Shown: positions 24,353 to 58,000 of the stretch, one piece after another
How positions within the stretch are numbered: the stretch's first letter is position 1
Layout of the letters: each line of letters opens with the position of its first letter
IMG/VR virus record: IMGVR_UViG_2885360797_000005
Source of the DNA: a virus
Taxonomy: Duplodnaviria > Caudoviricetes
Strand: one strand, 5' to 3'
DNA: 64,000 nucleotides
Made by a program: the position numbers and the translations under genes
Notes under the pieces: generated by a model
Databases searched by the model: none
Seen by the model: only the letters and a program-made list of their open reading frames with translations
What the model was told of the DNA's origin: nothing

Positions 24353-24601
24353 TTAGGTGAACGAGAATTTCTGCTTGTTGCCGTCAAAGATTTCGCTCAC
24401 GATGGTTGTTTCAAACGGGAACCCATCCTCAATGTCCGAGATTTGGTCAAGGATGTTCTTCATCTCTTCGCTTGCGGTGAAGAATTTGCCCCACTCGCCG
24501 GTCGCCTTGACCTTGAACGATACGAGATAGCGGCTGTTGCCGTATGAGGTGTCCATCTCTACCTCATAATCGTGTATCTCTAACTCTTTGTTTTGGATTA
24601 C
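24353..24601 (-). CDS. RT-associated C-terminal module, out of frame with the RT
   Basis: The -1 frame reads VIQNKELEIHDYEVEMDTSYGNSRYLVSF...KFSFT and overlaps the RT stop. Confidence 0.55.
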   Translation of the reverse strand, partial: VIQNKELEIHDYEVEMDTSYGNSRYLVSFKVKATGEWGKFFTASEEMKNILDQISDIEDGFPFETTIVSEIFDGNKQKFSFT

Positions 24602-25920
24602 GGCATGACTTTGCCGGGAAAGCGGTTCTTCCCATCGGCAGGAGTGTATGTCACTCCCATTTCTGAAAACTTTTTCATACGTTTACCAGTGATTAAGTGA
24701 AATATATACTTACAGTCGGCATGGCACGCCATACCCTTGAATGAGCCTATGATTTCCTGTCTGCGTTTCCGCGATTTCACCTTTGCCAGTTTACGGGCCG
24801 CGTTCTGCTTCGTGCGCCTGCGTATCCGGGCATAGTCGCCGAAATTCACATAACCAAGTGCGTCCATCCCTGCTGTTATGGGCGCAATCCTTTCGCTCGG
24901 CTTTATTGTCAGTCCGAGTTTTGAACTCTCTTCATGTAAGCACTCCCTTAATCTCCATAACTCTCTTTTACTTTCTGCCAGTATAAACGTATCGTCACAA
25001 AATCTGAAATAGTAAGTCGCTCCGTGTTTCTCGATCATGGCGTGGTCGAGGTCGTTCAGATAGAGATTGCCGAAAAACTGCGATGAACGTAAGCCCTTGC
25101 TGATACCTATGTCCCCATCGGGGTGCAGGGCTTTTACGAAATTCCGCAACATCGGTAATAGTATCGGGTCGGATATGTATCGCTCTATAATAGCAATCAT
25201 ATCGTCATGAACTATGTGGTCGTAATATCCTTTGTAGTCCGACTGGTAATAATACTTCAGATTCGGGTTAGCCTCTATCGCGGCTTGTATCTCATGGAAC
25301 AATCCGTGTGGGCCTCGTCCCTTTATGGAAGCGGCCGTGCTTTCAATCAGTACTGGAGCAAGCCGGGTTTCTATGACTTCCATAATGCTGTTGCTCCCCA
25401 TGCGCTCTACGACAATGGGTGCTTGTACTGTCCTTATCTTCGGGCCGTCCTGCGTATCAAAGGATGTCAGTTTGGTTATACGGAATTCTCCACTGCTTAT
25501 AGAGTGTTTAAGCTGCTCTATAATCTCTTTCTTCTTACGCACATATCGCGCCTGCCTCTTGGTGTATTCTTTGCCGTCAATGACAACGGTATCCTTTTTC
25601 TCGCTGTCCGATGCCGACTGGCGCAGGTTGCTTATTACGCGATTGAACGATGATATTAGATTGGCTTCCGTGATTATCTCCGGGATAAGATTGCATAAAG
25701 GATAGTTGACCGAGGGGCAATCCTCGGTCAACTCCATGAATGTTGCTATGTCTGTGACCGCCTTCCGGTCCTGTGGAGAGAGGCATTGCCCCTCTCCACT
25801 GTTGGTTATAATGTTCTTCCGGCTTTCCATATTCTTATGCTGTTGCCGAGGCGCAAACCCCTCGGAGAGTGCTGTGCCTGTCGCGCAGGCGTGCAGGGTC
25901 ATCCGATTGTGTTTAACCAT
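24598..25920 (-). CDS. DGR reverse transcriptase
   Basis: K.R motif (GPKIRTV), ASIKGRG.H, SDYKGYYDHI.H, GISKGLRSSQ (DGR-type GxxxSQ), FRFCDD catalytic motif, DALGY; adjacent to TR. The true start may be 25830 or later. Confidence 0.95.
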   Translation of the reverse strand: MVKHNRMTLHACATGTALSEGFAPRQQHKNMESRKNIITNSGEGQCLSPQDRKAVTDIATFMELTEDCPSVNYPLCNLIPEIITEANLISSFNRVISNLRQSASDSEKKDTVVIDGKEYTKRQARYVRKKKEIIEQLKHSISSGEFRITKLTSFDTQDGPKIRTVQAPIVVERMGSNSIMEVIETRLAPVLIESTAASIKGRGPHGLFHEIQAAIEANPNLKYYYQSDYKGYYDHIVHDDMIAIIERYISDPILLPMLRNFVKALHPDGDIGISKGLRSSQFFGNLYLNDLDHAMIEKHGATYYFRFCDDTFILAESKRELWRLRECLHEESSKLGLTIKPSERIAPITAGMDALGYVNFGDYARIRRRTKQNAARKLAKVKSRKRRQEIIGSFKGMACHADCKYIFHLITGKRMKKFSEMGVTYTPADGKNRFPGKVMP

Positions 25921-26178: not shown

Positions 26179-29100
26179 CTATCCGACAATGACGAATTTT
26201 CCGCGGAAGGCGAGCCGACCACCGCAGCTCGCGACCGAGCTCGAAGAAGCGTAGCTCGCGCTCGCATAAGCGAGGCCGCCACTCGCACTCGAGTTGTTGC
26301 CCGACCGCAAAACCACACGGCCACGGAAGCCGGGCAACCAGTGTCCTGCCGCATAGTGGGTAGTGTATCGGCTTGTGTCGGTCTGATGCACCTTACTTGC
26401 AAGAATGTCACACTTTGCGCCGTGGACTACACGCACCACGCAGTTACCGTTGCCGGTTACTGTCTGCACAACACGTTCCGTCTTGGTGATTGGGTCATAG
26501 ATATGAGCCTTGTAATCAATCGGGTCATCGTTGTTGTTATCAAGACAGCGGTTTTTATAGAATTCGGCATAACTCTTAACGTTGCAGGCGATATAGTCCA
26601 TCCACTCCGAGTCACAGCCGACATAGTGCTTGAGTCCCAGTATTGAGTTCATGGCATTGCCGACATATTCCGTGTCAGCCATACCGATGGAGTCACGGCT
26701 GTTCAGCGTTGCGTCATGCGCTCCGTTGCCGACAACAGCCTGCTCGTTGGTCGTTCCGCTCAATGCCCACCATAGGTTGCTGATTTCCTTGTGCTGTTCG
26801 TAGTCTTGCAACTGATAGCCTGCTCCGCGCCTGCGAGTGCTGTTTTGGAAATCCTTATCCGTGTAGTGGATTGTGCCGACTGGGGTTTCGGTCGGGTTGC
26901 CGTCTGAATCATGCGCCCACTCGGACGAGGTGGTTGAATTGCCGTCACCTTTTTTGGAACGGATAGCACCCGAAAGACTGCGAGGCATTTTCAGTCCGTC
27001 AATAGTAATCGGGTATGTTCCGATGAGGCTGTCGTTCTCGCCGACCGTGTGTTCAGTCCATTCGGGTTCGATCGCCTCAATGTGTGAACTGTCAACGGCA
27101 AGACACATGATGTCGCCGATGTCGCGGTATGAGGTGAAGTACATCCACTTTGCACCGCTCGGCACATCGCAGAAGACGTAGTTGCCGATTGAGAAATCAA
27201 AGTAGGTGTGGCTTACCTGCATGATGAACGAGCCGACAATCTTGCCGTCAGCGTCAGTAAAGACTGCGCCGAGGCGTGCGTGGTTCAGTCCGGGCCAGCG
27301 TGCCTGCTTCATGCCCTCTACGTCCATGCGATAGGCGTTAATGTTGGAGGCTGTGGCGATGACAGTATCATCAATGGTTTCTCCAACCTGCGCTTCGTCT
27401 GCATAGACCCCGGTGTTTTCAGCATAGAGCAGTTCCGAAAGCATAGCCTTAACGCTCTTGTTGACGGTCGATAGAGGTTCATTCTCCGTGGTAGAATACA
27501 AGATATATTTCTTCTGATTCTTGTAATCGTTCACCCCCTTGTACCAGTGGTGCGGCAGGTGATGGAAGATGTCGAAACCCTCTCCGGCTTGGTCGGAGTT
27601 GTCAAAACTTTCGCCCGAATTGAGGTAGCCGAAATCGGTGTCGCTCAACTGCACTCCCTCCATTTGATTGAGTTTGGAGTTGAACGTACACTTGTAGGCG
27701 TGAATACCCTGCTTGATTTTGAGGGTGTGACCGCTCGGCGCGAATGCCTTGTTGTAGTCTGCGCCAGTCTGATTTTCGGGGTTACTGTACCTCTCGCAGA
27801 AATCTCCGCCGATGATGTCATCAATCTTCAGCAACGAGAACTGGGAGTTGATGAGGTCGAGTTCGGGGAAATAGTTGCTCAGCGTTGTCATGCCTGCGTT
27901 GCCGTCCGTGTCAGTGTCCTCAATGAGTTCCGACAATATCCAACGGCCCGTGATGCCCGAACACTGTCCGCTCTCTTCGTAGGCTTTGCCAGTCGCGTCA
28001 AGTCCGATGGCGCCGGTCTTGCGCAGCTGACGGAGTACCGACACACTGGCGGTCATGTTGATGTTCGGAATGCGAACCTCGCGGATTGCTCCTGCCTCTG
28101 CGATTGTCATCACAAGGCTCTCCACGTCCACGAAGTCGCAACCCTCTACCCACAGACGGTTGATGCCGTTGACGCTTGCCAGTGTCAGACCGCCGGGATA
28201 TGTGAGCCTCGGCAGGTTCACAAGTTCCAGTTTGGTTACTGACGCAGGCAGTTTCAGCGTTTCGATAGGCGATGTCTGCGCAAGGTCGCAGTTGGTAAGC
28301 AGTGTGTTGCTTGCGTTGATTGATTCAATGCGCGGACAGCCCTTTGCATCAATGCCAGTAGCAGTGGTGTTGCTCACGTCAAAGATGCGCAGGAACGGCA
28401 TATCTCCCAACGTCAGGTTGCCGAGAGGATTGAAGCCGTTGAGCGCGGTGTTCTCGGTGTGCTTGTCACCGCCCAGTATGATTTCTTCGGCAAGCTGCAA
28501 CTTGCTCAAATCGTCAAAGTGGAACGCGAGGGACATTTCCGAAAGGTCAATCTTGCTCATGCGCCCAGTCTGATAGATGTAGAGCAGTGCGCCTGAGTCA
28601 TGGGCGAAAAGCGTGAACGCGTGGGTCTGTCCTGCTTCCAAAAAGACGGATTCCGACAACTGACCGCTTGCGTCATTACCGATTCCGAAATATCCCGGAG
28701 CTGCTGCGGTGATGTAGATTTTAGAATCGGCTTTGATGGCAGACACACGTCCGCTCAATGGATTGGTAAAGAAGTCGCCTGTCTGATAATAGCCGTCACG
28801 GATTGCCCAACGCTGTTCGATGAATCGGGGCAGTGTTGTCAGTCCCAGGCCGTGAAGCGCGTAGAAGTACGGCAGGTTGGCTATGCCAGTGTGGTCAATG
28901 TACTTGCGCTCTCCGTCATACGATGATACGACTTTGGGCCAGAATTTCAGACGCTTCTCCACAAAGAAGTATAACGCTCCATCGGGCGAGAACGGAACGA
29001 GGGTCTTGCCGTCTATCTGCGCTGTCTGATTACGCATTCGGTTCACAACACTCTTCAGTGATATGGTGGTCGTGCCGAGGTCGTTGCTGTTCCAGCACTC

Positions 29101-32100
29101 CTGCTGACGGTCCATGTTGTTGAAGAGTACCGAGCCGTAACCCATGTAGGGATTGGTATAACCGGTAGCTTCATCAGTCATCTTGTTGGGGTCTACCTCC
29201 GCGTCTATGTCTCGGCCGCCGTCATTGTCTGCGCCGTTGCAGGTGTCACAGTCATATACCTTGTTAAGATACATTCGGGTTGGCTCCATATTTCGGTAGC
29301 CGGAGTAAACGCCGTTCTCTACCGAACAGCCGTCCTCCAAGAAGAACATAGGCTGCATATTCTTGGCTCGTTGGTCAACAGCCGCGAGATAGTCAGTAAA
29401 GGCGGTGTATGCCATTGCGCTCTCAAGCGACATATAGCGGTAGGCGTTCTCTCTCCATATCTTCTCCCACCCGTTGACTTTGGAGTAGTCGCAGGAGTTG
29501 AAGAAACGAAGCATATTGAAGAGGTCGTAGGGTACTTTCTTGCCGAGTGCCAAATCCTCTTGGAGTTGGTCATCGTCAATCATGCACTCAAAGTAGTACG
29601 TCCATGCAGGATATTCCGTAGCCGCAAGTCCGAGTTTGCGAACCCATGATGAAATCTGTGTTGACGGCTTCATCATGTCTTCAATAGTCGCTACACCCTG
29701 CCACCAGTCCATACCTGCATATTGCAGTAGTTCGTAACCACTCACCGGGTTAAGCACATCGCCGGTCACAACCCACATGCCGTCAACCTGCTTCATTGAG
29801 CCAGTCGAACGTGTCCATGCGCCGTTCTTGTAGCGGTAGATAGCATAGTCGCGTCCGCAATACTGTGATATGAGATACACATTCTTTTGGGCGGCCTCTG
29901 TATTTGTTTCGGGGTCTGCCTTGAAACGAGCCTCGGTTTGCGCGAGGGTTTCATCGGGTGTGCCGAAGTATTCCACAAAGTCTCCGTAGTTGAGACAGCC
30001 TTTGTTATAGCCGGGTGTATCCTTGAAGCCGAGGGCGGTCTGCTCTCCCTTGTCCTCTTTCCAGTTGCCCTTGGCATGAAACCATGCGTCCTGCAAGGTG
30101 TCGGTCGTGGCGCGGAAGCAGGCTATCGGGTGGTTCTTTGTGGAATGGTCCATCTGACGACCCGTGATAACGTCTCCGTTGGAAAGAATCTGACGCCCGT
30201 CAAAGGCTCTTTGCGCCGGGGTCATGTATGACGAGCCGAGAGAGCGGAATGTGGCGTTCATCATATCGCACACGCCGCAGTCGTTGGCATTGGAACTGTC
30301 GGAATAATCGACTTTGACAGTAACCACGTCAATAAAGTTACCAGTCTCAGCGCAAAACACCTTTCGGTCAGCAGCAGCCTTGATTGCGTTGCGTCCAAGT
30401 TCGGTGCTGTCATCGGGATTGAGCAGGGTGACGGTCGCTTTAAGTCCTGTGGTCTTGTTCTTCTTGTTGAAGTTGAAGCGGTCGTTCTTAATGGGTCGCT
30501 GTGCCGAAGTCGTTCCCTGCCTGCGCCAAAGCACATTCACAGCCTTGAAGTTTACTTCCGGATGCTGTGGGTTGAAGTAGTACAGCGTGCAGGCAAACTG
30601 GTCGCTTGTTGATGTACCGCCGTTCAGAGCATAGTCGAAATTATTGAATGTGGTCTGGTCGGCGACAATCACATAGTAAGGTATACCTTTGGCCGCCATA
30701 AGGCTCATGGACGGCTTGCCTGTCGTATCCAGTACATTCTCTTTGTCATACTCCGCTATCATGGCGCGGACATCGCTCAACTTGCAAAGGTAGTTGCGGA
30801 ATGCCTGCAACCATTCCATATAGGAGTTGTAGGCCATGATGTAGTTGAGGTTGAAATCGCCGTTCTCGGAGTTGAACGTGATTGTCCTGTTCTGACGCAG
30901 TGCGCTCGTTCCCGGCTGATAGCCTATGGCGGCGCACTCCTCGCCGTTGACGTAGAGTTTGACAAAGGAGTAGTTCGTTCCGCTGGATGCGTCTGAGGCT
31001 TTGTATGTGACATACTTGCTCCCCGGCTCAACGACAACGGCGACTGTCACTTTCTCTCCGCATTTGAAGCCTACGCGCTGTCGCCTCGGCGTGCCGTTAA
31101 GCACTGTCAGCACAATCTCATTGCCACGTATATAGAAGCCGACACCTGCCGCAGGGTCGTAGCACTCGCAGAGCATAGCGTTTCTATCCTTGATACTCTT
31201 GGTGGAGAATGCCAACTGGATGGCGGCTCCGCTCGTTTCAAGGGCAGAGGGCGAGAACGGCGCATAGGGTATCTCCGCTTTGACATTTTCGGCGATGCGC
31301 AGGACATTCTCACCGAGGACGGACACAAAGCCGTTGGAGCTCCAGTTACTGCCGATGACCTGCATCGTGTAGCCGTTGTCCTTGATGGTGTGGTCGCTCT
31401 CGCTGTTGTTGCGTGTGGAGAAATCGTAGGCGAAGAGTGCGCCCTCTTTGATCTCAGCGTCAATGGCCGAACCCTCGACCGTGAGTGTGATTGTATAGGA
31501 CTTGGATGTTCCGCTCTGTGCGTACACGTCAAAACTCTTGCTTCCGTCCGAGGCATAACCTTGAATCTGCTTCGTTACATTGAGCGTCTGACTGGTTTCG
31601 CAGTTGGCGGTAGTGGCTATATGTCCGTCAATCATTACCTCAATGGCTGTGCGTGTTTTGCCCGGAGTGTAAGCTGCGACATCAAGCGCGATGGAATCAT
31701 ACAAGCGCACTTTACCCTCGTTGCGGTCATCGTATCGCATGACTACAATCGGCGTGCTGTTGTTTGCGTCAACGCACATCACGGCTGTGTAGATTGTATT
31801 GCCTGTCACACCCGAAGCAATGTCTTTGCCTTGAATGCGCAGGGGGTATGCGCCGTGCGTCAGTTGTTCGGAATTGCCGAACACGTTGTTCGGGTCAATG
31901 CTGATGTTGTGGCTGTACTGGTCTGTGACCGTAGCCGTGCCGAGGGTGTGCCATGCGCCGTTGTAGAACATCTCGGTTGTCACCAGTATGCCCTGTTTGG
32001 TGCTGACGTTGTTTTCAAACTTATACATCGGCAGGCTCTTCTCGCGTCCTCCTGCTTCAAGAGCGGTGGCGGCTGAGTAGTTAAGTGCCTGCACACAGGT

Positions 32101-34581
32101 ACACGTCACGTCAACGGCGGTAACGCTGATTACACGAGTGCGCTCGTTGCCGTCCGCGTCAGTGGCTTTGATTTTGTAGTCCTTGCTCGATGCCCCGGTT
32201 ATGAACTCGGTAAAGTCAAATTCAAATTTGAGGTCATTGGCTGATGTTGAGGACGGCTGATTGACAACCTCACTCCACAACTCTATATTGGTGGTCGGGT
32301 CGATGATACTCAGTGAGCGGATTGTTCCCAGTACCTCATCTTCGCCGTCATAACTTACGCTCTTGATGGCGGCCGACAAAACGATTTTACCACCATACGC
32401 GCCCCATACGGCAGAGTCGCAGTAGATGGTGAGTGTGCTTCCGCTCTGACCGCCACCGCCGTTGCTCTTGGGTATCTTCACGGAATCGCCGAGAGGTTCG
32501 CCTGCTTTAGTTACGGCTTGTATGATATAATCCGATGGGGCGGGTTCTATCTGCAAGCCTCCGAATGAGCGTTGTTCCATATCGTACGCGCCGCCGGTTG
32601 ACAATGCTTTAGTGCCGTTTACCTCTGGCTCGTTGCCGAGTTCAAAAGTAGAGCCACCGCCACCGCCGAAGTCTGGCCATAGGTCATCGCCGTTTGTCGC
32701 GGATATATCCTGCACCTGCCCACGGAACTGCTTTGTCTCCCATGCATGGGGCGTTTTGGAAGAATCCCTGCGGTAGGTTATGACAAGTCCGGATTTGAGA
32801 TAGTTTACCCCGGTGGTGTCGCGCAGGTCAATGAGTGCCTGTATGGCAAGCGACATGGTGTAGTCTTTATCTTCGCACACCTCATTGACATTCACGATGG
32901 CTTCTGCGCCTGCGCTCATGCCTGCGAGATCGAGCCAGTTTTCACTGCTCAAAACATCTTCCTTTTCAAGTGTCGCGCCGACATACTGGTATATCTTCCA
33001 CGCACCGTGAGCAACGGCAAAGGTAATCTGCAAGCCGAAACCTGCCTTTCCCTGCTCATAGACTATCGCTGGAGCATAATACTTGGTGTCGGTCGGGTCG
33101 TTCAATTGATAGAACAACTTGTCGGGGTCGCTTGTGGGTATTTCCGATGTGAGGTTGAACGTATTGCCGACTGAAGCCCCTCCGACCATTGTCAGTTTAT
33201 CGTTGATAATGCGGTATAGTCCGTCTGCCATACGATATAGACAGCCGGAATTATACGTCATGTCAGAGTTATATTCTTCTTCAGGGAGGTCATAAAAATT
33301 GGTGTTGCCAAAACTGCGGAAATACCAACCGCCCTCTTCATTCGGACAAAGCCATACACCACTTTTAGGTGTAGTGCCGGTTCCATCCCATTGACCGTCA
33401 CAAAGCAGAATCCCTAAGTTGCGCAATCGGTTGGCTGTGTTTTTTAGATTTTTCTGCAACTGCGCTCCTTCATCGCCGGGGAACGCCGTGTTTGCTGTAC
33501 GACCCAGTGCAAGGTCATTACCAATGATGACAAGTTGTGTGCCACTCCAACGATAGGTTTTATTATCTGAGGTAGAAATATACACCTTGCCACCTTCGGG
33601 GATTCTACCTTTTGCGTCACCTTCACCAAAGGAGCCACCGTCAAGCCAGTTGTTGTAGTAGGTGAATTTTGATGTGATGAGTGAGGCTGTTCCGTCCGTA
33701 AGTTCCCAGTAATCCACAACGTTCAATAGAGGCAACGCCTCAACGCTCTCTGCGGTGGCGGTGGCAGGAGTGTTGAGTGTCTTTATCGGGCGCAATATCT
33801 GCTCTCTCCATTGTGTACGCTGTTCATCGGGTATGGCCAAATGCGACACTGCAAGAATAAATCGGTTGCGGTCGCTGTCATAAACCACCATACAACCGGC
33901 ATCAGTTGATTTTTTGTTCGCTGATTGTGCAAGCGGTGTTATGTCGGAGACTATGGCATTGAACTCTACGACATCATCAACGAAGCCGGGAAGCTGCGCT
34001 GACGGAACTTTGCCGTTTGCGTCAAGAGAGGCCAGGCCGTTAGCCTTGCCCTTGCTGTTGTTGATGCTCTGAATGCTTGTCTCAGCATTGGTCACGCGAG
34101 TTTTCAGGCCGGACACATCGGTCGTGAGCGTATTGACCGAACTGCCGATAGTGTTTATCTGCGTGCGTATCTGCTCAATGCTCTGTGCGTTTGCCGATAC
34201 ATCTTTCGCCAGTTCTTTCAAATCAGCGTCAAGGGCCGCAACGGCATCGTTGTACTGTTGGCTGTCAATGGTCGGGTTGCCTGCCGATTCGCCGGTCGCT
34301 ACCCATGCACCGCCGTCTGCGATGTATAGGGGCGCAGGCAGGGTGTTGCCGACTAATGCCCACCAACCGTCATGCGGTAACGGATATGCCTCACGGAGTT
34401 TAGTCACGTCAAGGAAGATACCTTTGTTGGGGCCTTTGATGTTTCGGGCATCAAGCCATCCCTCAACTTTCAGATTCTTCTTGACAGTCGTATTCCCCTG
34501 TATGGTCGCGTTACCGCCTGCGGTGACGTGTCTGCCGATAGCCACATCACCCTCAATTTCGGTTGTCTTTATCTGACTCAT
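26179..34581 (-). CDS. 2800-aa tail fibre/receptor-binding protein, DGR target
   Basis: Fibre-type N-terminus (coiled coil, GLASLDANGKVPSAQLP, YRWSGT), Ig-like and LamG-like beta domains, CotH-like region, LRR-like repeats, C-terminal CLec-type end (EW..., VVLRSG...GGRLAF) containing VR. Confidence 0.9.
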   Translation of the reverse strand: MSQIKTTEIEGDVAIGRHVTAGGNATIQGNTTVKKNLKVEGWLDARNIKGPNKGIFLDVTKLREAYPLPHDGWWALVGNTLPAPLYIADGGAWVATGESAGNPTIDSQQYNDAVAALDADLKELAKDVSANAQSIEQIRTQINTIGSSVNTLTTDVSGLKTRVTNAETSIQSINNSKGKANGLASLDANGKVPSAQLPGFVDDVVEFNAIVSDITPLAQSANKKSTDAGCMVVYDSDRNRFILAVSHLAIPDEQRTQWREQILRPIKTLNTPATATAESVEALPLLNVVDYWELTDGTASLITSKFTYYNNWLDGGSFGEGDAKGRIPEGGKVYISTSDNKTYRWSGTQLVIIGNDLALGRTANTAFPGDEGAQLQKNLKNTANRLRNLGILLCDGQWDGTGTTPKSGVWLCPNEEGGWYFRSFGNTNFYDLPEEEYNSDMTYNSGCLYRMADGLYRIINDKLTMVGGASVGNTFNLTSEIPTSDPDKLFYQLNDPTDTKYYAPAIVYEQGKAGFGLQITFAVAHGAWKIYQYVGATLEKEDVLSSENWLDLAGMSAGAEAIVNVNEVCEDKDYTMSLAIQALIDLRDTTGVNYLKSGLVITYRRDSSKTPHAWETKQFRGQVQDISATNGDDLWPDFGGGGGSTFELGNEPEVNGTKALSTGGAYDMEQRSFGGLQIEPAPSDYIIQAVTKAGEPLGDSVKIPKSNGGGGQSGSTLTIYCDSAVWGAYGGKIVLSAAIKSVSYDGEDEVLGTIRSLSIIDPTTNIELWSEVVNQPSSTSANDLKFEFDFTEFITGASSKDYKIKATDADGNERTRVISVTAVDVTCTCVQALNYSAATALEAGGREKSLPMYKFENNVSTKQGILVTTEMFYNGAWHTLGTATVTDQYSHNISIDPNNVFGNSEQLTHGAYPLRIQGKDIASGVTGNTIYTAVMCVDANNSTPIVVMRYDDRNEGKVRLYDSIALDVAAYTPGKTRTAIEVMIDGHIATTANCETSQTLNVTKQIQGYASDGSKSFDVYAQSGTSKSYTITLTVEGSAIDAEIKEGALFAYDFSTRNNSESDHTIKDNGYTMQVIGSNWSSNGFVSVLGENVLRIAENVKAEIPYAPFSPSALETSGAAIQLAFSTKSIKDRNAMLCECYDPAAGVGFYIRGNEIVLTVLNGTPRRQRVGFKCGEKVTVAVVVEPGSKYVTYKASDASSGTNYSFVKLYVNGEECAAIGYQPGTSALRQNRTITFNSENGDFNLNYIMAYNSYMEWLQAFRNYLCKLSDVRAMIAEYDKENVLDTTGKPSMSLMAAKGIPYYVIVADQTTFNNFDYALNGGTSTSDQFACTLYYFNPQHPEVNFKAVNVLWRRQGTTSAQRPIKNDRFNFNKKNKTTGLKATVTLLNPDDSTELGRNAIKAAADRKVFCAETGNFIDVVTVKVDYSDSSNANDCGVCDMMNATFRSLGSSYMTPAQRAFDGRQILSNGDVITGRQMDHSTKNHPIACFRATTDTLQDAWFHAKGNWKEDKGEQTALGFKDTPGYNKGCLNYGDFVEYFGTPDETLAQTEARFKADPETNTEAAQKNVYLISQYCGRDYAIYRYKNGAWTRSTGSMKQVDGMWVVTGDVLNPVSGYELLQYAGMDWWQGVATIEDMMKPSTQISSWVRKLGLAATEYPAWTYYFECMIDDDQLQEDLALGKKVPYDLFNMLRFFNSCDYSKVNGWEKIWRENAYRYMSLESAMAYTAFTDYLAAVDQRAKNMQPMFFLEDGCSVENGVYSGYRNMEPTRMYLNKVYDCDTCNGADNDGGRDIDAEVDPNKMTDEATGYTNPYMGYGSVLFNNMDRQQECWNSNDLGTTTISLKSVVNRMRNQTAQIDGKTLVPFSPDGALYFFVEKRLKFWPKVVSSYDGERKYIDHTGIANLPYFYALHGLGLTTLPRFIEQRWAIRDGYYQTGDFFTNPLSGRVSAIKADSKIYITAAAPGYFGIGNDASGQLSESVFLEAGQTHAFTLFAHDSGALLYIYQTGRMSKIDLSEMSLAFHFDDLSKLQLAEEIILGGDKHTENTALNGFNPLGNLTLGDMPFLRIFDVSNTTATGIDAKGCPRIESINASNTLLTNCDLAQTSPIETLKLPASVTKLELVNLPRLTYPGGLTLASVNGINRLWVEGCDFVDVESLVMTIAEAGAIREVRIPNINMTASVSVLRQLRKTGAIGLDATGKAYEESGQCSGITGRWILSELIEDTDTDGNAGMTTLSNYFPELDLINSQFSLLKIDDIIGGDFCERYSNPENQTGADYNKAFAPSGHTLKIKQGIHAYKCTFNSKLNQMEGVQLSDTDFGYLNSGESFDNSDQAGEGFDIFHHLPHHWYKGVNDYKNQKKYILYSTTENEPLSTVNKSVKAMLSELLYAENTGVYADEAQVGETIDDTVIATASNINAYRMDVEGMKQARWPGLNHARLGAVFTDADGKIVGSFIMQVSHTYFDFSIGNYVFCDVPSGAKWMYFTSYRDIGDIMCLAVDSSHIEAIEPEWTEHTVGENDSLIGTYPITIDGLKMPRSLSGAIRSKKGDGNSTTSSEWAHDSDGNPTETPVGTIHYTDKDFQNSTRRRGAGYQLQDYEQHKEISNLWWALSGTTNEQAVVGNGAHDATLNSRDSIGMADTEYVGNAMNSILGLKHYVGCDSEWMDYIACNVKSYAEFYKNRCLDNNNDDPIDYKAHIYDPITKTERVVQTVTGNGNCVVRVVHGAKCDILASKVHQTDTSRYTTHYAAGHWLPGFRGRVVLRSGNNSSASGGLAYASASYASSSSVASCGGRLAFRGKFVIVG
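26206..26321 (-). repeat. DGR variable repeat (VR)
   Basis: Encodes RVVLRSGNNSSASGGLAYASASYASSSSVASCGGRLAF, versus TR-derived RVVLRSGNNSNANGGLAYANANNASSNSNTNYGGRLKF. Confidence 0.97.
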
Positions 34582-46000: not shown

Positions 46001-49000
46001 CACGAGCCATCACCGGGACGCGCTCCACATAGTCAGCCCCGTCTCTGAATCTCACATCTTCGTCTCCGTCAAATGTCGGATTCTCAAAAGTTTTTATTAC
46101 CTTTGCAACATCTTCCAAGTCAAGATAGTCAACGTCAGCGAGAATCGTTCGCTGTTTGTCTATTAAGGCTTGGATTTTTTGTTTGTCTGCATAAAGCAGC
46201 TTCCCTTGCGAAATCCAGTTCAGCCATTCGGCGTTGTGCTTGGGGAATACATTTCTTACGCTGTTTATCTCCAGCGCTTTGCCATTGACAATCGGATTTA
46301 GGGAAAGTCCTACGATAAATTGCTTGCCATTGCTTTCAATTCCCACAATAATATTCTGCATCTTCCCCTTGTTGCCGTAGGCGAATACTGCCATAGGGGT
46401 CTGCAGTTCCTTCACAAGATTCCGTATCTCCGCCAAATCAAAATCATGCCCATATTCGGTTGCTTTGGCACGTAGTCTTGTGGCAGACATCTGAATAGGC
46501 AGATTGGGAACACCGGTGGAGCGTAAAATGTTACTTGGCATTCCTAACTGATAAATATGGCCGTCAGGAAGATTCCCATCAACCTGCCGCTGTAATTCTT
46601 TATTGAAACGATTGTTGGCGTCCTCAATTTTGGCAGATTCGCTCAACATAGCCTCGCCCCATCCCGTACGGTGACGCATAACGGCATCCTCGGCATCGGC
46701 GAACACGCCGCCTTTGCCCTGTTTATCGCGCATATTCTTCCATGACTTGAAGAGGATATATGAAAGGTCTTTATCGTTGAGGCGTATGCTCTTGGCAATT
46801 TTTAAACCGCTCAGGAATTTGTCCAGGAACGATTGAACCTTTGCCTTGATTTTACCCCAGAGCGTCAGTTCGTCACGGCTCATCTTCTCAAAACCCTCGC
46901 TGCCGATACGACCGGCGAGATCTGCCATATATTCCTCAGTGGCTTCCTTGCGGAAATCCTTGCGCTTTGCTTCGGCCTCAACTCGCGCCTCTGCCATGTC
47001 GGTGTAGTAATTGGCGTTCACATCTTTCCCGGCTCGCTCGTGTGCCTGTGCCTTGCGAGTGCGCAGGCGGTCGGCTTCCTCGCTCACCATTCTGTCGGTC
47101 ATCTTGTCAATGACTTTGCGGATGGGATTTGAGGCATGGTCGTAAATCTCGCCGAGGAATTCATCGAAGCGTTCCTCTCCTACGAGCGCACGCAGGCCCT
47201 TGTGTCCTGCAACTTCATGGACAAACGTATTGTCCACATCGGCTACATTGACGTTGTTAGGCAGGACGATGACAACCTCATCATCCTTTGCGCTCCACCA
47301 GCCTTTGGCACGCCTCTCTCTGCGAGTGGGGAGTGCATCGGCCTCTTCCTGCGTCCTTACAATACGGACTGGGGTGTTGGCTCTTGCCGACAGGTCGGCG
47401 ACACGCGCTTCTTTGGCTTCGGTCGATGATTCGTAAGCGTCAAGGTAGGCGCGTGCCTTTTCAAGACCTGCGTCCCATTCGCCTGCGTTCACTCGATCGC
47501 GCAGCTCATTGAGCATGGGTATGTCGGCTTCTGCCACGCTTCCGCTGATGTCACCGAACTTTGCGCCACGTTTGGCGAGTTCGGCACGGAGCATCGGGGG
47601 AACGGCATTTATGGGGAACGTAATCTTTTGGTTGCCCACGCGCTCCATGATGAGGTCTGCAACCTCGCTCCACGGAACAATGCGCCCCGGCTTGAAATAG
47701 CGCGACAGCATGGTCTGAACCTTGGTGTCATCGCTCAACTGACCGTTGACGCTTCCGCTGTGCCAGTCCATAAGACCTACGGAATCCTTTGCGCCCTCGG
47801 CCTGATAGCCGCTCGTTTCCTCGCTTTCGGGATAGTAACCCTCGACAACAAGAAGTTCGGGTCGGTCGTAGGCGGCTGTGAACTGGTCGTTGAGCGGAGA
47901 GGTACGGATATGGAAATATGGATTGTAGGCCACATCCCCGGTGGTGCGTCCGTTACCCTGCACAAGGTCGGCTTTGCCGTTCTCCTTGCGCATACCCTCT
48001 TCGCTCTGCTCCCAACGGCTGAATATCATCGGCGCACGCCATTCTCCGTTCTGCTTGGCGGTCATGGGTGGCAATACGCCCATGTTCGCCCACTGCGAGT
48101 AGCGGTAGCCTTTCTTCAGCGGCTGTGCGTCAAGGAAGTCAAGCAGTTCACGCTCGGCGACAAGGCGATACTTATTGCCGTCCCCTGTGGTCGGGGTGTC
48201 AGTGCTGTCCTCATCGGTCAGAGTGATGTCCGAAGCGGTTTCTACCGATTTGTCAAGTTCGGCATACTTGGCTTCTTTCTCTGCCAATTCTTTCTTCATG
48301 GCTTCCTCATACTTGGCAAGACGCTCTTTGGCTTCTGCCAGTTCCTGCTTGTGTGGGAACTCACGGCCGTTGCGCTGTTCAAGTTGGGTTCGTTCCTCGG
48401 TGTAATGAGCGAGTTGCTGTTGACCCCTGCTAAGGAGTTCACGGCTCTCTCTGCCAGTCACAATGTCCTCGGCGATTTTCTGCATTATGTTCTTTAGACG
48501 GTTGCCCTTGATGGCTTGGTCTTTAATGCCGAGTTCCTCGCAGGAATATGTGACATTGCGCTCCGGCTCAAACGTCAGAGTACCCTGACCCTTGCTGTCA
48601 ACGGTTCGGCTGACGGTCGTTGTGACCTCAAATTTCAAGCCGTCAACATCGACCACAAGTTTACTGGTGTAGTTGTCAGCACCCTCACGGACATTCTCGG
48701 CCGCCTCGTTCATCTTGGCATTCTGCTCTTTGAAGAAATCATCCATAGCAGCCACGCTGTCGAATGTGAGTTTGCCGATGGTTATCTTCTTGATAGTGCC
48801 GTCGGGGAAGTGTGAACCGATTATTTCAAGGTTCTTGGTTTCAATCTCGATGCGGCGTTCAGCACCTTTGATGAAGCCCTCAACCTTTGGCAACTGGTTG
48901 TGAACATAAATCTGATCGAGGTCGTGACCTTTCTGCTTGGCGGTAAGATTACGAACCTCGCGCTCGGCTTGATTCTTCAGTATGGCATACTCACTGCCCG

Positions 49001-52000: not shown

Positions 52001-55000
52001 AGTATGCTTTGAAACACTCCGCTTTGGTGTGACCCTTGACCTTGTTTTTGTTCAGTCCGAGGGGAACAGCCTCGCCCATTCGTGCCATGCAGAGTTCGCC
52101 CTGCGAGTTCAGCACCATGCTTCCCTCCTTGACACCCTCGCCGAGTTGCTCATTGATTCGGGTTATCTCATCTTCGACTTTCGGCGCGGCTGTGGCTTCC
52201 TCTTCCATGTCGGCGAAACTGCTTGCCCATTCGGACAACATCTTCGACTGTTCCTTTTCCTTGACTGGGAAGAGGGCGCGACTGGTCGGGAAGCGTGTTT
52301 CACCACGCTCAAAGTTGAACATCATCTCGCCTGCCATATTCTCCGGATGTTCCGCAAAATATTTGTTGTACATCATGCTGTACTGCTTGATGACGGGAAT
52401 TTCCTGACCTTTGACCTTGCGAGTGTCGCCAGTATCATAGTCAGCCACGCGCACACCTATTGCATCCGTCACGTCTATGGCATTAGGTGAGGGCTTGCCG
52501 TTGACGCGCTTGCGCACAACGATGATGTCCGAGGTTGCCCCGGTGCCTCCGAATGTCTTGTTGTGCATACGGAAAGCACCTACAACGTCAGCATTACCCT
52601 CGCCGATAATCCAAAGGCGAAGTTCCTTTGAGTTGTCCATCGTGCCGCTTGACGTGATGAATATGCCAATACCGCCCTCGCGGAGTTTGCGGATATTCTT
52701 CGCAATGCAGAAATCGTGGATGTCATGGAATTTCTTGGAGAGGTCTTTGTCGCCTGTCTCGTCAAACACTTTCGCACCAGTTATGAAAGGCACGTTGGTA
52801 ATGGCGAGGTCAACGGTGCCGTTCTGCACTCGCGTTTTCTCAAAGCCTTGTATCTCCACCTTGGCATCCGGGTAGAGCAACGAGAGGATTCCGCCAGTGG
52901 TGCGGTCAATCTCAACGGCATGGATTGAGCTGCGCTCACTCATGTCGGTAGGCATAAGTCCGATGATATTGCCGATACCTGCTGACCCCTCAAGCACGTT
53001 GCCGCCCTTGAAGCCCATAGCGCGTGCTACATCCCACATGGTGTCTATGACCTCGGCAGGAGTGTAGTAAGCGGAACGGCGGCTGTCCACAGCGTCTTGA
53101 TAGCCGTCCTCGCCCAGTAGTTCTTTCAGACGTTTGGCAATCGGGTTCGGAGTATAGCCCTGCTCATTGAAAGCCTTGCCCAGTCCACCCCAACCGCTGA
53201 ACTTACGGAGTACGGCCATCTGTTCGGGTGTGGCGGTTTCGCCTGCGTCAAGCAGTCGCTTGGCAAGTTCGATCGCTTCCATATTGGCCTTGATGCGTGC
53301 GTCCTCGCCTTTGGGGGCATAGTCAACGCCACGCTCGGCATGGTTGTTGCGGACATTCTTCCGCTCCGATTCGGGGACCGGCTCAATTACTGGTTGGCTC
53401 TTAGGCTTTCGAGGTACGCCTGCGCCTCGCTCTCCGTCAGACATAGGATTGACGCTACTACGTCCACCCATTCCTCGTCCGTCAGTTCCTTTAACTTCAT
53501 TCCGTTGGCTCTCTCCCAACGGTTCATGCGATTGAGGTTCGTGTCCTCTTTCTCGCTCGGCAGTGCCGGGGCGAGGTTGTACGTCAGTTTCTTCATGATT
53601 GCTTGAGTTTTGAGTGTTATCGAATAGGCCGCCGAACAAATCTCCGACAGGTTGTTCCGGCTTCAAAGTTACATCTTTTTTGCGAGAACTTCGCTTCTTC
53701 TCCTGTGCGGCTCTTGCTACACGCTTTGCCTCGCCGAAGATTCCATCGGCAGGCTTGACGCGGCTCCAGTCTCCCTTTTCTGACATGACATCCTTGACAG
53801 CCTCAAAGATAGGCCCACCGTCAGTGTCAAAATCTTCTATCTTGACTTTCTCCCAATTGCCGTTGCCGTAACGGTCCCACATGACCTCATCGCCGACCTT
53901 GTAGCCGTTGTGAGTCACGTCTACTTTTCGCTCTTCGGCAAGCTGCGCTTCAACTTCGGGAGTGATGGTATATGGAGATTCGCCACGTTCTGCCATATCA
54001 GACCATTCATGCCAAAGCTCATCTACAGACTTTTCTTTAGGAAGATAGTCGCGTGTAATCTCTTTTACCCTGCGCAGAAAATCGGCATAGGTTGATTCAA
54101 CCGGGGCATACATATTGTAGCCCCAACGTTCCATACCGCTCCCATTCGGATTTTCCACCCGGTATAGTATCCGCTCAACGGCAAGATTGTCACCACGTCT
54201 ACGTGTGCCTCTTTCTGCAACTGGTTCAAGACCGATATAGATGGCGAGTATTCTTCCCTCGTTGAGAGGGAGATTTACAATTACGTCACCACCTGCCGGG
54301 GCGATGTTCGCTCTTACCGCAGTGCCTTTCTTGACTCTCTTGCGGCCGAGCGTGGTCGCACTCGTGACTTTAATGTCAATGCCGAGGTCGTTTACCAACT
54401 GCTTTGCAAGTTTTGTAGCATCTGCCACGGCTTTTTTCTCTGCTGTGAGCATATAGCCGTAACTCTCATGGAACTTTGAATCGTCCTCAACGGCTTCATA
54501 GTAGCCGAGGACTGCCAGTTGGTCGTTGATCTCGTCAAGTGTTTGGTCAATCAGTTCTGAGGCTCGGTTGAGTTCGCCTGCGTCTGCTGAAGTTTCTGCG
54601 ATACTTTCTGCCTCGCCTGCAACAGCCTCTGCTTTTTCTGCAAGAGCTGCTGTATCTGCTTCTGTCTGCTTGTCATTTTCTCTTCGGTTTTTGTTTCGGG
54701 TTTCGGTAAGTTCTTTCTGCGCCTGCGCGGATGCGGTTGAGGCTTTGCGCTCTTCCACAATCATAGCCGCCTGCGCGATTGGGTCAGCCTGCTTCTTGTC
54801 GAAGTTCTGCACGTCAAACGTGGCAACCTGCTCGGTCGGTGTAAAGGTATATTTGTCATAGCCGGGTGTCCAGCGTGCGCCCTCATAGAACGATTTGAGC
54901 CACGGACGTATCTTGTCGCCCAACAATCCCACCATCTTGGTGGCATAGTCGGGGAATGCCGTTGTGCCTCGCTCGATAAGACCCATAGCAAGACGGATGC

Positions 55001-58000
55001 CTGCGGACTGGATGCGCTGACGCTCCTGCGCTGTCAGTTCGCCGGGGTCGCGGAACTTGATGTTGGTGTCGCCCTCGTCATCGCCTATGCCCAACAGGTC
55101 GCGCAACTCGTCAGCCAAAGACTTCATTTCGTCATCGCTGATTTCGTGCTGTTGCTCCGGCTCTGCCTTGACTGGTTCGGCGTGGTCGCTCAACTTGGTT
55201 TCTCCTTTGGTCGACAGGTCGGTCATCACATCTTCAAGGCTGACGCGGTTGATAGGTGCTTTCTTCGGCTTCCGTGCAGGCTTCTTCTCCGCAGGAGCCG
55301 CAGGAGCGACAGCCTCACGGAGTTCCTCGGCGGTCATTGGCTGTGCGTCCGCAACCGCTTCTTCGTTGCCAATCATCTCGGCGAGTTGGCGTGCGGCTTC
55401 CTCACTGCGCATCATGTAACCGCCCTGCTTGCGGTCATACCAACCGCGAGAGGTTTTCTTACCCTCGGTGAGAGGCTCACGCGCGAATGTGTCAAGAGCC
55501 GCCTTTTGCTCGGCGGTCAGTTCGCGGTTGAACTTGACAAGGTGAACATCGCTCGTCTTGCCTTTCTTGTTGGTGTAGGTTGTCGGCGTAATGGTGTACG
55601 GTTCAGAACTTTCCGCGCTCTCCGTTTGTTTATCTGCTGACAAAGTATTAACTTTGCGGTCAGAAGGCGAGTCGAGCGTAGGGCCGGAAAGGGCACCGGC
55701 CTCCTCCGAAGATTCGGAGGGCAGTATGAGGGATTGCCCGTCCTCACGCTCTTTCCCCTTAACATTATTGTCGGACGTAGGAACAAGGTCCGGTCCCTCC
55801 GATTCACTCGGAGCCTCGGTTAAGTACCTTTCAGAACTGGGGGACAAACTTTCAGAGAGATGTAGAATTTTACCATTCTGCATCTCTTTCTTTATTGCTT
55901 TACCCTCGGCTTCATGGCTGCTTATTGATACCTCCATGCCGTCACGCTGAACGGTTACAGATTCAAAATGCACAAGACGGCTTCCATCGGATTTGATGAA
56001 CGTCTTTACAAACAGATATTTGCTGTCTCGCTCTGCACCTTCAGCAGGTGCGTTTTTCTCAATGATGACATCGGGAGTGTTGAGTGTAGGATGTATCATG
56101 CTGAAATACTCTGTCCTTTTCAGTGAGTAGAGTTTCAGCAACTGGTTTGCACCCATCTTGACAATGCCTATGGGAGTTTCAACAGTGCCGTCCTCTCCGA
56201 ACTGGGCAATCCAGTTTTCGGGCGTGAGTTCAATTGAGGGAGCGACTTCGGCGGTTGCTTCCATTCGTGCAATCAACTCCGTTGCTTCCTGCTCGGTGAG
56301 TGAGCGTCCAATCATGCCGTTGCCCTCAATAGCCTTGACGCTCTTGTACTCGGCAAAGGGCTTGGTCTTACGTCTGCTCGACTGAATCCACTTCTTGAAC
56401 TCTTCCTTGCTGACGTGGGTAATCGCGCCGAGACCGGTCCAACCCGGCTCATAGTTGGAGAGGTATGCGTAACGCGCGGCCTGCTCCGTGGGGAAGCCGT
56501 ACATAACCTTATGCTCGTCAAACGAGCCGTCCTCGTTCACTTGGTCAACGACAAACACATCGCCCTCTTCGGGAGTGTCGGAAAGGAACACGTCAATGTG
56601 GTCGCCGTCCACGCCCTCAGTCCCACGGATATATCCGTAGTCGTTCTGCATGGTAGTTTCCCACGGCTTGCCGTCCGCTCCAGTACCTCGGCGTACACTA
56701 CCTTTGGCGTTCTCAATGCTGACGTTGTAGCCGTCAACCTTGCGATGTTCCATCTTGTAGTTGCCTGCGGCTTTCTGCGCCTCAGTCGGTTCGGACTGCA
56801 TACCTCCGTCAACCTTTAGCTCGGCGGACGGATGTCCATCAATATACTGGGCAATCTCGGCGATGTCGCCAAAACGCTTGCCGTCAAATTCAAAGTATGA
56901 GCCTGTGTAGTGTCCGTCCTCATTGGGTGCGTCAACTTGCGTAACTATGTGAGTGCCGTCAATGATGATTTCACACTTATAAGTGGGCTTGTCACTGTCA
57001 CCCTCTTCCCAGTCGTTTTCAGTAATCTCAACACGGGCCGCGAGTGCCTGCTCTTCGGGAGTCAGTTCCTCGCGAGTGCCTGCTACTGGCTGTTGAGGCT
57101 CTGCACTGCGTTCAACATCATTCGGAGTTTGTTCACTTTCTTGGTCTCGTCCAAGCTGTTCTGCTTCTGCTCTGCGCTTGCGTTCCGCAATGGCAGCTTC
57201 CACGAGTGCCTGCTGTTCTTTGGGGGTTGCATTTCTGAAATGTTCGTTTACATTGGTGAGTATTTCTTCTTTTGAGGGGATCGAGCCTGAAAACATGTCA
57301 AGTTGACCGCCCGAAGCTTGTGCAGCCTCGTTGTTGTATGAGGTCAGCACCTTGCGCAGGTCGCTCGGCTTACCGCTGTTGAGAATGTCTGCAAGCAGGA
57401 GTGCGGTCGCGTCAGTCACACGGCTGTCTCCAAACTCATCATCAAACAATCCCTGCATACGTCCGAAGGGCGACACTGGCATTCCATCGGTATATACGTC
57501 CGGCATAGCGGCCTTGGCGCGAGTAACAAGGTCTACAGCCTTTGCAAGTTCCTCGCTGATGTCGTAGCCGTTTCGGGCAAGAGTGCGGTTATTGGCAATC
57601 TCATTCAATCCCATAACGATTGACTGGCGAAGTGTCGGCATAGAGATTATCTGACGCACTGCATCGGGCGAGGTTTGGAACACCTTGCCGATAAGAGTGT
57701 TTTCGATAAGTTCCTTTCCTGCGGCCGACAACGCCGTGCCTGTCCGCAGTTCGGGCATCTGCATATCGTTGATGACTCCTGCCTGCATGAGTGCGCCCAG
57801 TGCGTGAGCTACGGCTTTCTCGTCAGCATAGTAGTCCGAGAGGCGGTCGTAACGGCTGATGTCGTTGACAATGACGTTGAACACATTGTCGGGGACAATC
57901 TTTCCGAGTTTCACGGCGGCTTCGGGCTTGCCCTGCGATTTCTTCTCCTGCGCGTTGAACCGAGCAAAGGTTGTGGCATCGTAAGGAAGAGCCTCGTCCG

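Follow-up and report, generated by a model that had tools for sequence, protein, structure and literature searches.

A 64-kb stretch of viral DNA (IMG/VR record IMGVR_UViG_2885360797_000005; the whole stretch analysed, 64,000 nucleotides (nt), is called the window below) most likely carries, on the + strand at 55625-55905, a complete small-RNA gene antisense to the gene of a 6613-amino-acid (aa) polyvalent virion protein. The predicted RNA lies opposite the tail of PBECR2, a predicted ribonuclease (RNase) domain of that protein, and we propose that such RNAs act as partners of the nuclease-like modules in whose tails they are written. For the whole statement, RNA gene and partner role together, we estimate a probability of roughly 0.55. 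The portion that concerns promoter, fold, strand, terminator and module linkage, to which comparative sequence analysis points throughout, is in our judgement highly probable.

The 6613-aa protein contains the Pfam domains ddrB-ParB, InPase, PBECR2, ResIII/SNF2/Helicase_C, MuF_C, and LPD38, and is a polyvalent protein as defined in the relevant passages of Iyer et al. 2017 (PMC5512222). The PBECR2 match (PF18810) scored 29.3 bits against a cut-off of 27.1 (E 1.1e-6) and covered 117 of the 120 profile positions. Pfam gave no match to another module, LPD13 (PF18825), across the whole protein. Positions 55625-55850 code for residues 2354-2429 approximately, a tail rich in Ser, Glu, and Pro (S/E/P) just C-terminal to PBECR2; an earlier note on this DNA, made from the letters alone, had correctly described such a linker directly behind a BECR-like domain.

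In the window, a four-way junction ("type B", the LPD13 type) is followed by the PBECR2-type RNA ("type A") and a terminator; the window is therefore predicted to encode a composite antisense RNA of about 235 nt (Table 1). A host-type sigma-ABfr promoter would drive this transcript from about 55663 to a hairpin and U-tract near 55895, passing through the type-B junction, locked by a kissing helix, then the type-A multibranch body, and finally the terminator.

Table 1 Predicted elements of the antisense RNA and the protein-coding features around them.
Feature	Position	Strand	Basis or remark
-33 box TTTG	55625-55628	+	20-nt spacer to the -7 box
-7 box TAACTTTG, sigma-ABfr-type promoter	55649-55656	+	matches TAnnTTTG
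Predicted transcription start (about 55663) and conserved leader CAGAAG	55657-55673	+	leader conservation; start position inferred
LPD13-type (type B) four-way junction	55674-55751	+	minimum free energy (MFE) fold, model R1
Type-B closing stem GAGCGT/ACGCTC	55674-79/55746-51	+	MFE fold of 55660-55850
Type-B arm GGCCGG/CCGGCC	55682-87/55696-701	+	MFE fold
Type-B arm CCTCCGA/TCGGAGG	55703-09/55714-20	+	MFE fold; 4-nt loop
Type-B arm GAGGG/TCCTC	55728-32/55741-45	+	MFE fold
Type-B kissing loops GGGCA with TGCCC	55691-95 with 55735-39	+	complementarity
Block of about 96 nt encoding KGKEREDGQSLILPSESSEEAGALSGPTLDSP, tail of the LPD13 module	55678-55763		absent from some PBECR2 relatives
PBECR2-type (type A) RNA body, multibranch	55768-55847	+	fold, comparison
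Type-A P1	55768-72/55843-47	+	
Type-A P2	55773-76/55793-96, inner 55780-82/55789-91	+	
Type-A P3	55797-802/55808-13	+	
Type-A P4	55814-21/55835-42	+	
Intrinsic-terminator-like hairpin, 15 pairs, with U-rich tail	55854-55889, tail to 55905	+	terminator scan
PBECR2 domain (PF18810), predicted BECR-fold RNase, residues 2233-2349	55863-56213	-	Pfam match
Polyvalent (DarB-like) virion protein gene, 6613 aa	43068-62909	-	open reading frame (ORF); directly upstream of the portal gene

An antisense promoter conserved in two reading frames

The earlier note had read a Bacteroidetes promoter on the non-coding strand, and both of its boxes are present where it placed them, 20 bp apart. They satisfy the Bacteroidota sigma-ABfr consensus, TAnnTTTG at -7 and TTTG at -33 about 19-21 nt upstream (PMC7366714). 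The full motif TTTG-N18-22-TAnnTTTG occurs three times in the 64 kb, compared with 0.7 expected. Across homologues, the -7 box was kept in 102 of 107 unique LPD13 and PBECR2 tails. TAnnTTTG stood at a fixed upstream distance in 53 of 57 family rows, and 44 of 52 homologue rows had yTTG at -33, the spacer being 19-20 nt. In 88 tails the protein gene reads the -7 box as xxC-AAA-nnT-Axx, and in 15 the frame is shifted by one base (xCA-AAn-nTA) so that different amino acids are encoded. If the peptide alone were constrained, background codon usage (Lys AAA 0.39, C-ending codons 0.26-0.41, T-ending codons 0.31-0.59) would give the box at about 5%.

The other two full motifs of the window are intergenic and face each other within 70 nt (2662-2731) near the integrase end of the window; they look like a divergent regulatory region, possibly a lysis-lysogeny switch.

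Structure of the predicted RNA

The MFE fold reproduced the four-way junction with three arms that the earlier note had drawn. Its spacing of 2-1-7-0 nt corresponds to a cloverleaf topology, and the loops GGGCA and TGCCC, which had been suggested to kiss, are indeed complementary. Model R1, a covariance model of the LPD13-tail antisense RNA built without the window, matched the window once and over its full length (55657-55772, + strand; 76.5 bits, E 1.6e-18), and this was the sole strong match in the genome.

Folding energy was examined for the window sequence alone. Relative to dinucleotide shuffles the z score was -1.97 on the + strand and -1.57 on the other strand, and the RNA region fell at about the top 2% of windows within the gene for folding, without being unique. 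S/E/P-type tails fold easily because Ser-Glu, Pro-Ser, and Ala-Gly codons are partly self-complementary. Since the single-sequence z score is weak, and weaker still under codon-preserving nulls, folding energy was not used as evidence.

A transfer RNA (tRNA) identity was rejected: ARAGORN called 0 tRNA or transfer-messenger RNA (tmRNA) genes in the window, the loop of the middle arm has 4 nt and is not a 7-nt anticodon loop, and there is no T-loop consensus. A scan of 54500-57000 against Rfam 15 with E up to 10 returned only two chance-level matches (E 2.6 and 8), far below the gathering scores.

The second structured unit proposed in the earlier note does exist, but it is really the body of the PBECR2-type RNA, and it is followed by a terminator that had gone unmentioned. 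The terminator hairpin is succeeded by CTTTATTGCT and lies inside the coding sequence of the C-terminal helix of PBECR2 (KEMQNGKILHLSE); the predicted RNA covers roughly the final 50 coding bases of PBECR2 plus the tail. An antisense ORF of 119 aa (55591-55950, +) overlaps the RNA and starts upstream of the predicted transcription start; it might wrongly be annotated as a gene. No conserved antisense ORF was found in the RNA family, where the longest is usually 16 aa and is missing in one clade.

Comparative evidence for fold, strand, and terminator

Covariation across homologues, which the earlier note had asked for beforehand, was found in the LPD13 tails. Counts were made on 45 distinct LPD13-tail sequences with a hand-set structure, the window and its close relatives being excluded. 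Cells were paired in 82.7%, versus 36-49% with slid partners. Both sides had changed in 172 cells, compared with 19-55 for slid partners and 56 +/- 6 for shuffled alignments, and none of the 500 shuffles reached 172. The covariation score was 0.334, against about 0.1 in the controls. With 56 distinct model-aligned sequences, 85.2% of cells were paired (33-51% in the controls) and 191 showed changes on both sides (12-68). RNAalifold on plain MAFFT alignments recovered the helices only in part, since indels distinguish the arms of different clades, and the hand-set structure and the covariance model were used instead.

The closing stem GAGCGT/ACGCTC is replaced by CCATCCGT/ACGGATGG or CTATCAG/CTGATAG, and the compensation includes nonsynonymous triplets; across LPD13 tails, many of the compensations in the junction are nonsynonymous on both sides. 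In relatives, arm 1 (GGCCGG/CCGGCC) becomes GGTTGG/CCAACC, GGCTGG/CCAGCC, or GGTCGG/CCGACC, and arm 2 (CCTCCGA/TCGGAGG) becomes CTTCTGA/TCAGAAG or TTATCC/GGATAA. The middle-arm loop measures 3-6 nt in the family. Loci L099 and L100 encode an identical peptide and differ by a synonymous swap of T-A for A-T. The kissing helix covaries as well: three of its positions are paired in 100% of sequences, and a C-G/G-C flip separates clades (27 versus 16). In the group of the window the helix has five pairs, with the variants GGGCA/TGCCC, GACCA/TGGTC, and GGCCA/TGGCC.

The strand could be read from the wobble pairs. In the helices whose register is common to all clades, G-U on the antisense strand outnumbered A-C 80 to 10, which places the functional single strand opposite the protein gene. 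Furthermore, the 12-bp closing stem of the LPD13 family is directly followed by yCTTTTTATTyTTTC, the reverse complement of E-[RK]-I-K-[RK]. The codons under this U-tract are strongly biased: Ile is ATA in 87% (35% in the background), Lys is AAA in 80% (39%), and Arg is AGR in 100% (43%). Taken together, the promoter, folded body, and intrinsic terminator at LPD13 loci are predicted to form a complete small-RNA gene of about 100-110 nt.

The PBECR2 tails behave similarly. A single antisense -7 box was found in 49 of 51 unique tails, 169-232 nt after DGxEV (295 nt in composites like that of the window), and it was kept despite widely differing tail peptides. Among the folds listed, about 25 predicted PBECR2-tail transcripts have a stem-enclosed multibranch body. 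In the several subfamilies inspected by eye, the predicted transcripts end either with the closing stem and a U-tract or with a separate strong hairpin and a U-tract in the coding sequence of the last helix. Within the PBECR2 subfamily of the window, CGTAGGAAnnAGGTCCGG is invariant, and P2, P3, and P4 show covariation, hardly a pair being broken. The sequence of P1 is different in every case, yet its two sides stay complementary (TTGTC/GACAA, GAAACATTATTCTC/GAGAATAATGTTTC, ACATTGTCACC/GGGTGACAATG). The terminator hairpin is the most variable part in sequence (62-76% identity) yet remains paired, and in the L007 contig its wobbles work on the antisense strand only. The tail is 89-96% identical at the nucleotide level where the PBECR2 domain is 77-86% identical.

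Linkage of the RNAs to nuclease-like modules

LPD13 modules of polyvalent proteins from Bacteroidales phages were collected from viral and genome contigs (27, 68, and 37 loci), the genome sources including metagenome-assembled genomes labelled Bacteroides, Segatella, Prevotella, Muribaculaceae, Paludibacteraceae, and Porphyromonas. R1 matched 104 of 105 LPD13 loci, about half of which were seeds of the model, and always in antisense. LPD13 together with the RNA is also present in Segatella copri HDE04 (NZ_CP152346.1:1484458-1486391; L190, 123.7 bits). By comparison, only 4 of 80 PBECR2 loci were matched, all of them near relatives of the window. The earlier note had supposed that the RNA travels with the adjacent nuclease domain. 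A tie to nuclease-like modules is borne out; however, the junction belongs with LPD13 and not with the neighbouring PBECR2. Indeed, the viral contigs L005-L010 and L013-14 have the same PBECR2 and downstream domain without the 96-nt block that holds the whole junction. The flanks of the gap are 85-96% identical in L005-L008, 88% in L010, and 39% in L013.

The origin of the block could be traced. It encodes a conserved C-terminal tail of LPD13 (...IKRQAEREGGELLIL...SLSTP...DLSS), and an exact-pattern scan located it in contig L011 behind LPD13, where there is no PBECR2. The right-hand junction in the window is native, because L186 has LPD13, the tail, and SDDKVNTLSA in succession; on the left side, LPD13 is evidently replaced by PBECR2 with its own tail. 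A mobile repeat, like a miniature inverted-repeat transposable element or a Rickettsia palindromic element, was rejected as the source: the block is single-copy in the genome, its likeness to the neighbouring tail is weak (score 31 versus 18 +/- 3.4), and an LPD13-tail origin explains it better.

An orphan type-B copy without an LPD13 domain is kept in five contigs. L011 shows the mirror composite at 1084-1725, in which InPase-LPD13 is followed by the type-B tail and then a type-A tail without PBECR2; its RNA order is promoter, type A, and type B with terminator. This mirror arrangement implies that modules recombine within the tails that encode the RNAs, and the window, L011, and L005-9 represent three different arrangements with recombination junctions inside the tail. 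As for repeated units, in L095 (900-1300) the tail is duplicated (...LTDGQQVEKNGGELVMLSSKDKVESLSTP...) and holds two tandem type-B units, and L202 has two R1 matches, at 1096-1191 and 1657-1764.

As to distribution, R1 gave no match in three Bacteroides TP phages, and neither the RNA by blastn nor this PBECR2 and LPD13 by tblastn gave a match in the phage collection. In an order-wide sample, 2 of 151 genomes matched, the one of the window counted.

We know of no function assigned to LPD13. A model of it (from L091:601-1137; predicted local distance difference test score, pLDDT, 73) shows helices followed by a four-stranded sheet, and the tail has a pLDDT below 50. An exhaustive structural search placed BECR-type RNase toxins at the top, with CdiA-CT 7m5f (Z 6.2), 7vd7 (Z 5.5), BrnT (Z 5.2), CdiA-CT 5i4q (Z 5.2), and colicin D (Z 4.8), and RelE/ParE-type RNase toxins were also among the top matches (Z 4.8-6.2). 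These matches offer a lead to its function. The assignment of LPD13 as a BECR-like RNase is suggestive only, because the Z scores are modest and Foldseek and hhalign give nothing; Foldseek against the PDB returned nothing below E 0.04.

Proposed role and its alternatives

As the proposed mechanism has it, host RNA polymerase would transcribe the RNA, and the RNA would protect the producing or lysogenic cell from the RNase module. Type B accompanies LPD13 modules and type A PBECR2 modules. Domain swapping by recombination inside the tail probably gave the window its present make-up, PBECR2 accompanied by its own RNA plus an LPD13-type RNA left as an orphan; the orphan copy might protect the lysogen when rival phages inject the same module. 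We tentatively suggest, at somewhat less than even odds, that the folded RNA binds and neutralises the BECR-type RNase module on the opposite strand, or is an uncleavable tRNA-like pseudo-substrate of it. The closed junction and the selected tertiary contact argue for a trans-acting folded RNA, for example one with a protein partner, and not for a plain countertranscript; since each RNA type is specific to a module, a connection with the module's activity is also favoured. Shuffling would not separate toxin from antidote, as the tail of the module itself carries the RNA gene.

Several points weigh against this proposal. Under nulls that preserve the protein, the fold of the window has a z score of only -0.8 when synonymous codons are resampled (81 of 400 as good) and -1.5 when codons are permuted within the segment. 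The type-B copy of the window lacks the outer part of the closing stem found in the family (about 12 bp, CAAGyC/GGCTTG) and a U-tract or terminator of its own. The outer pairs are non-canonical in its R1 alignment, where ACGCTC is followed by TTTCCCCTTAAC, and they and the U-tract are absent because the LPD13 coding sequence supplying them is gone, with PBECR2 and its tail in its place. Accordingly, this copy could be a recombination scar and not a working module. The cell counts overstate the number of independent events, as the sequences fall into few clades, and R1 captures conserved coding sequence too, many of the matched loci being its seeds. Finally, the nuclease nature of LPD13 depends on Z scores below 8, and the comparison of LPD13 with PBECR2 by hhalign, at a probability of 1.8%, is not significant.

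The alternative that survives best, unlikely in our view and still to be taken seriously, is a cis-acting countertranscript that pairs with the 20-kb polyvalent messenger RNA (mRNA) and silences or cleaves it, for instance with RNase III in lysogens, in the manner of lambda OOP, P22 sar, or type I antitoxins; the compact fold would then serve only stability and the initiation of pairing through the kissing loops. The RNA is by construction perfectly complementary to the mRNA, it has a host-type promoter and a terminator of its own, and like type I antitoxin RNAs it extends over the 3' portion of the sequence that codes for the nuclease domain; moreover, structured cis-antisense RNAs have been reported from Bacteroides (PMC7366714). 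However, plain pairing needs neither a covarying kissing helix nor a closed junction, which bury most of the sequence. The two RNA types each follow one type of BECR-like module and not a fixed position in the gene, and the orphan type-B copies in five contigs persist without the domain.

A role directed at the host instead of the phage's own domain is improbable; the RNA, shaped like a tRNA, would then serve as a decoy or recruiter, for example for a tRNA-directed defence nuclease or for tRNA-processing or Ro/Y-RNA-like machinery. The junction spacing matches a cloverleaf, the GG of the "D-loop" pairs with the "T-loop", and there is no anticodon since the middle-arm loop has only 3-6 nt. The ARAGORN, T-loop, and Rfam results given above (Y RNA families included in the last) speak against it, and a purely host-directed role leaves the strict LPD13/PBECR2 linkage unexplained.

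It is very improbable that selection acts on the pairing at the level of the DNA or the sense mRNA, where a hairpin or cruciform might be a recombination hotspot for module shuffling or make ribosomes pause once the domain is translated. Recombination junctions do fall within the tail in the window, L011, and L005-9, and Watson-Crick pairs are equal on both strands; nevertheless, the ratio of G-U to A-C favours the antisense strand, and a promoter and U-tract conserved at synonymous sites and at fixed distances are unexplained. A chance product of a partly self-complementary Ser/Glu/Pro/Gly-rich linker and a chance promoter on a T-rich strand is scarcely credible. The codon-preserving nulls, the expected 0.7 promoter motifs per 64 kb, and the equally good folding of other gene windows for their GC content would fit it, but it is contradicted by the covariation relative to shuffled and slid controls, the independent R1 match, the promoter conserved in two reading frames, and the codon bias that preserves the U-tract.

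Comparison with known systems

Type III toxin-antitoxin systems (ToxI/ToxN, CptIN, TenpIN) resemble the proposed arrangement in that a folded RNA opposes an endoribonuclease, the setting is phage conflict, and the pair is inherited as a unit. Their antitoxins are tandem repeats that lie upstream of the toxin on the same strand and are processed by it. In contrast, the RNA predicted here would be a single non-repetitive junction with its own promoter, antisense in the tail of the nuclease module, and its nuclease, unlike the type III toxins, forms one BECR-like domain within a 6613-aa protein.

Lambda OOP, P22 sar, Sok, SymR, and Sib are likewise short countertranscripts that run from a promoter of their own to an intrinsic terminator, overlap the 3' part of a coding region, and reside on a mobile element. 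Those RNAs have one or two hairpins with exposed loops, whereas the RNA of the window has a closed multi-helix junction and a covarying kissing helix, lies in the middle of a 20-kb ORF, and belongs to module-specific types. The toxin of a type I system is a small hydrophobic peptide under translational control by the RNA, and here it would be a domain of the giant protein.

YrlA Y RNAs, the tRNA-like domain of tmRNA, and viral tRNA-like structures resemble the predicted RNA in their cloverleaf, in the contact between loops one and three, in their long closing stem, and in lacking a true anticodon loop. Unlike them, it has no T-loop or D-loop consensus and no CCA end, and its loop contact consists of 3-5 Watson-Crick pairs. 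The FopS small RNAs of Bacteroides were considered too; the papers found on them connect them with RbpB and with control of polysaccharide utilisation.

The protein context is identical to that given for the PBECR domains of polyvalent, MuF, and portal fusion proteins in the pertinent passages of PMC5512222, and both PBECR2 and MuF_C occur in the present gene. The searched passages of that paper on PBECR or immunity name no RNA partner, in contrast to the arrangement proposed for the window, and the word "noncoding" does not occur in its searched passages. No such RNA was described in the PBECR papers that were read, PMC5512222 included.

Implications of a module-linked RNA

Nucleases are carried into new hosts by polyvalent proteins. 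A structured antisense RNA encoded in the tail of each RNase module would explain both the survival of the producing cell and the free shuffling of modules with no loss of protection. As a general rule, each BECR-type RNase module (LPD13, PBECR2, and probably MuF_C) might carry a cognate inhibitory, tRNA-shaped antisense RNA in its disordered tail; we hold this generalisation to be doubtful. If it were true, the tail and module would be a self-contained cassette of toxin and RNA immunity that survives shuffling, the RNAs would be a new class of RNA antitoxin, and LPD13 would receive a first function and an assigned partner.

An RNA family in this position is invisible to screens of intergenic regions. 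It would also be an extreme case of dual coding, in which a protein tail is encoded on one strand and a four-way-junction RNA on the other and both visibly shape codon choice, and it serves as a warning that the "disordered linkers" of giant phage genes can be conserved for non-protein reasons.

Other observations in the window

A candidate second antisense small RNA was noticed at the tail of MuF_C (46170-46466), the other BECR-family domain of the gene. This element (46098-46184, +) has TACCTTTG at 46098-105, a stem CCAAG...CTTGG enclosing a hairpin at 46136-46154, and then ATTTTTTGTTTG; it has no -33 box in the window. In two of four distant homologues (L312 and L313) the same (S)AAKV motif coincides with a -7 box, after which come a fold closed by a stem and a U-tract. 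The -7 box is missing in L310 and in L311, whose frame breaks there. A scan of viral contigs for MuF_C relatives found none.

The window represents most of a temperate Bacteroidales phage, near-identical viral contigs being about 62 kb long. Genes for an integrase, a helicase, a DNA methyltransferase, a reverse transcriptase, the large terminase subunit, and the portal are all present. The reverse transcriptase gene (phrog_1423; 24598-25920, -) adjoins an ORF of 2800 aa (26179-34581, -), and the two may constitute a diversity-generating retroelement with a large target protein.

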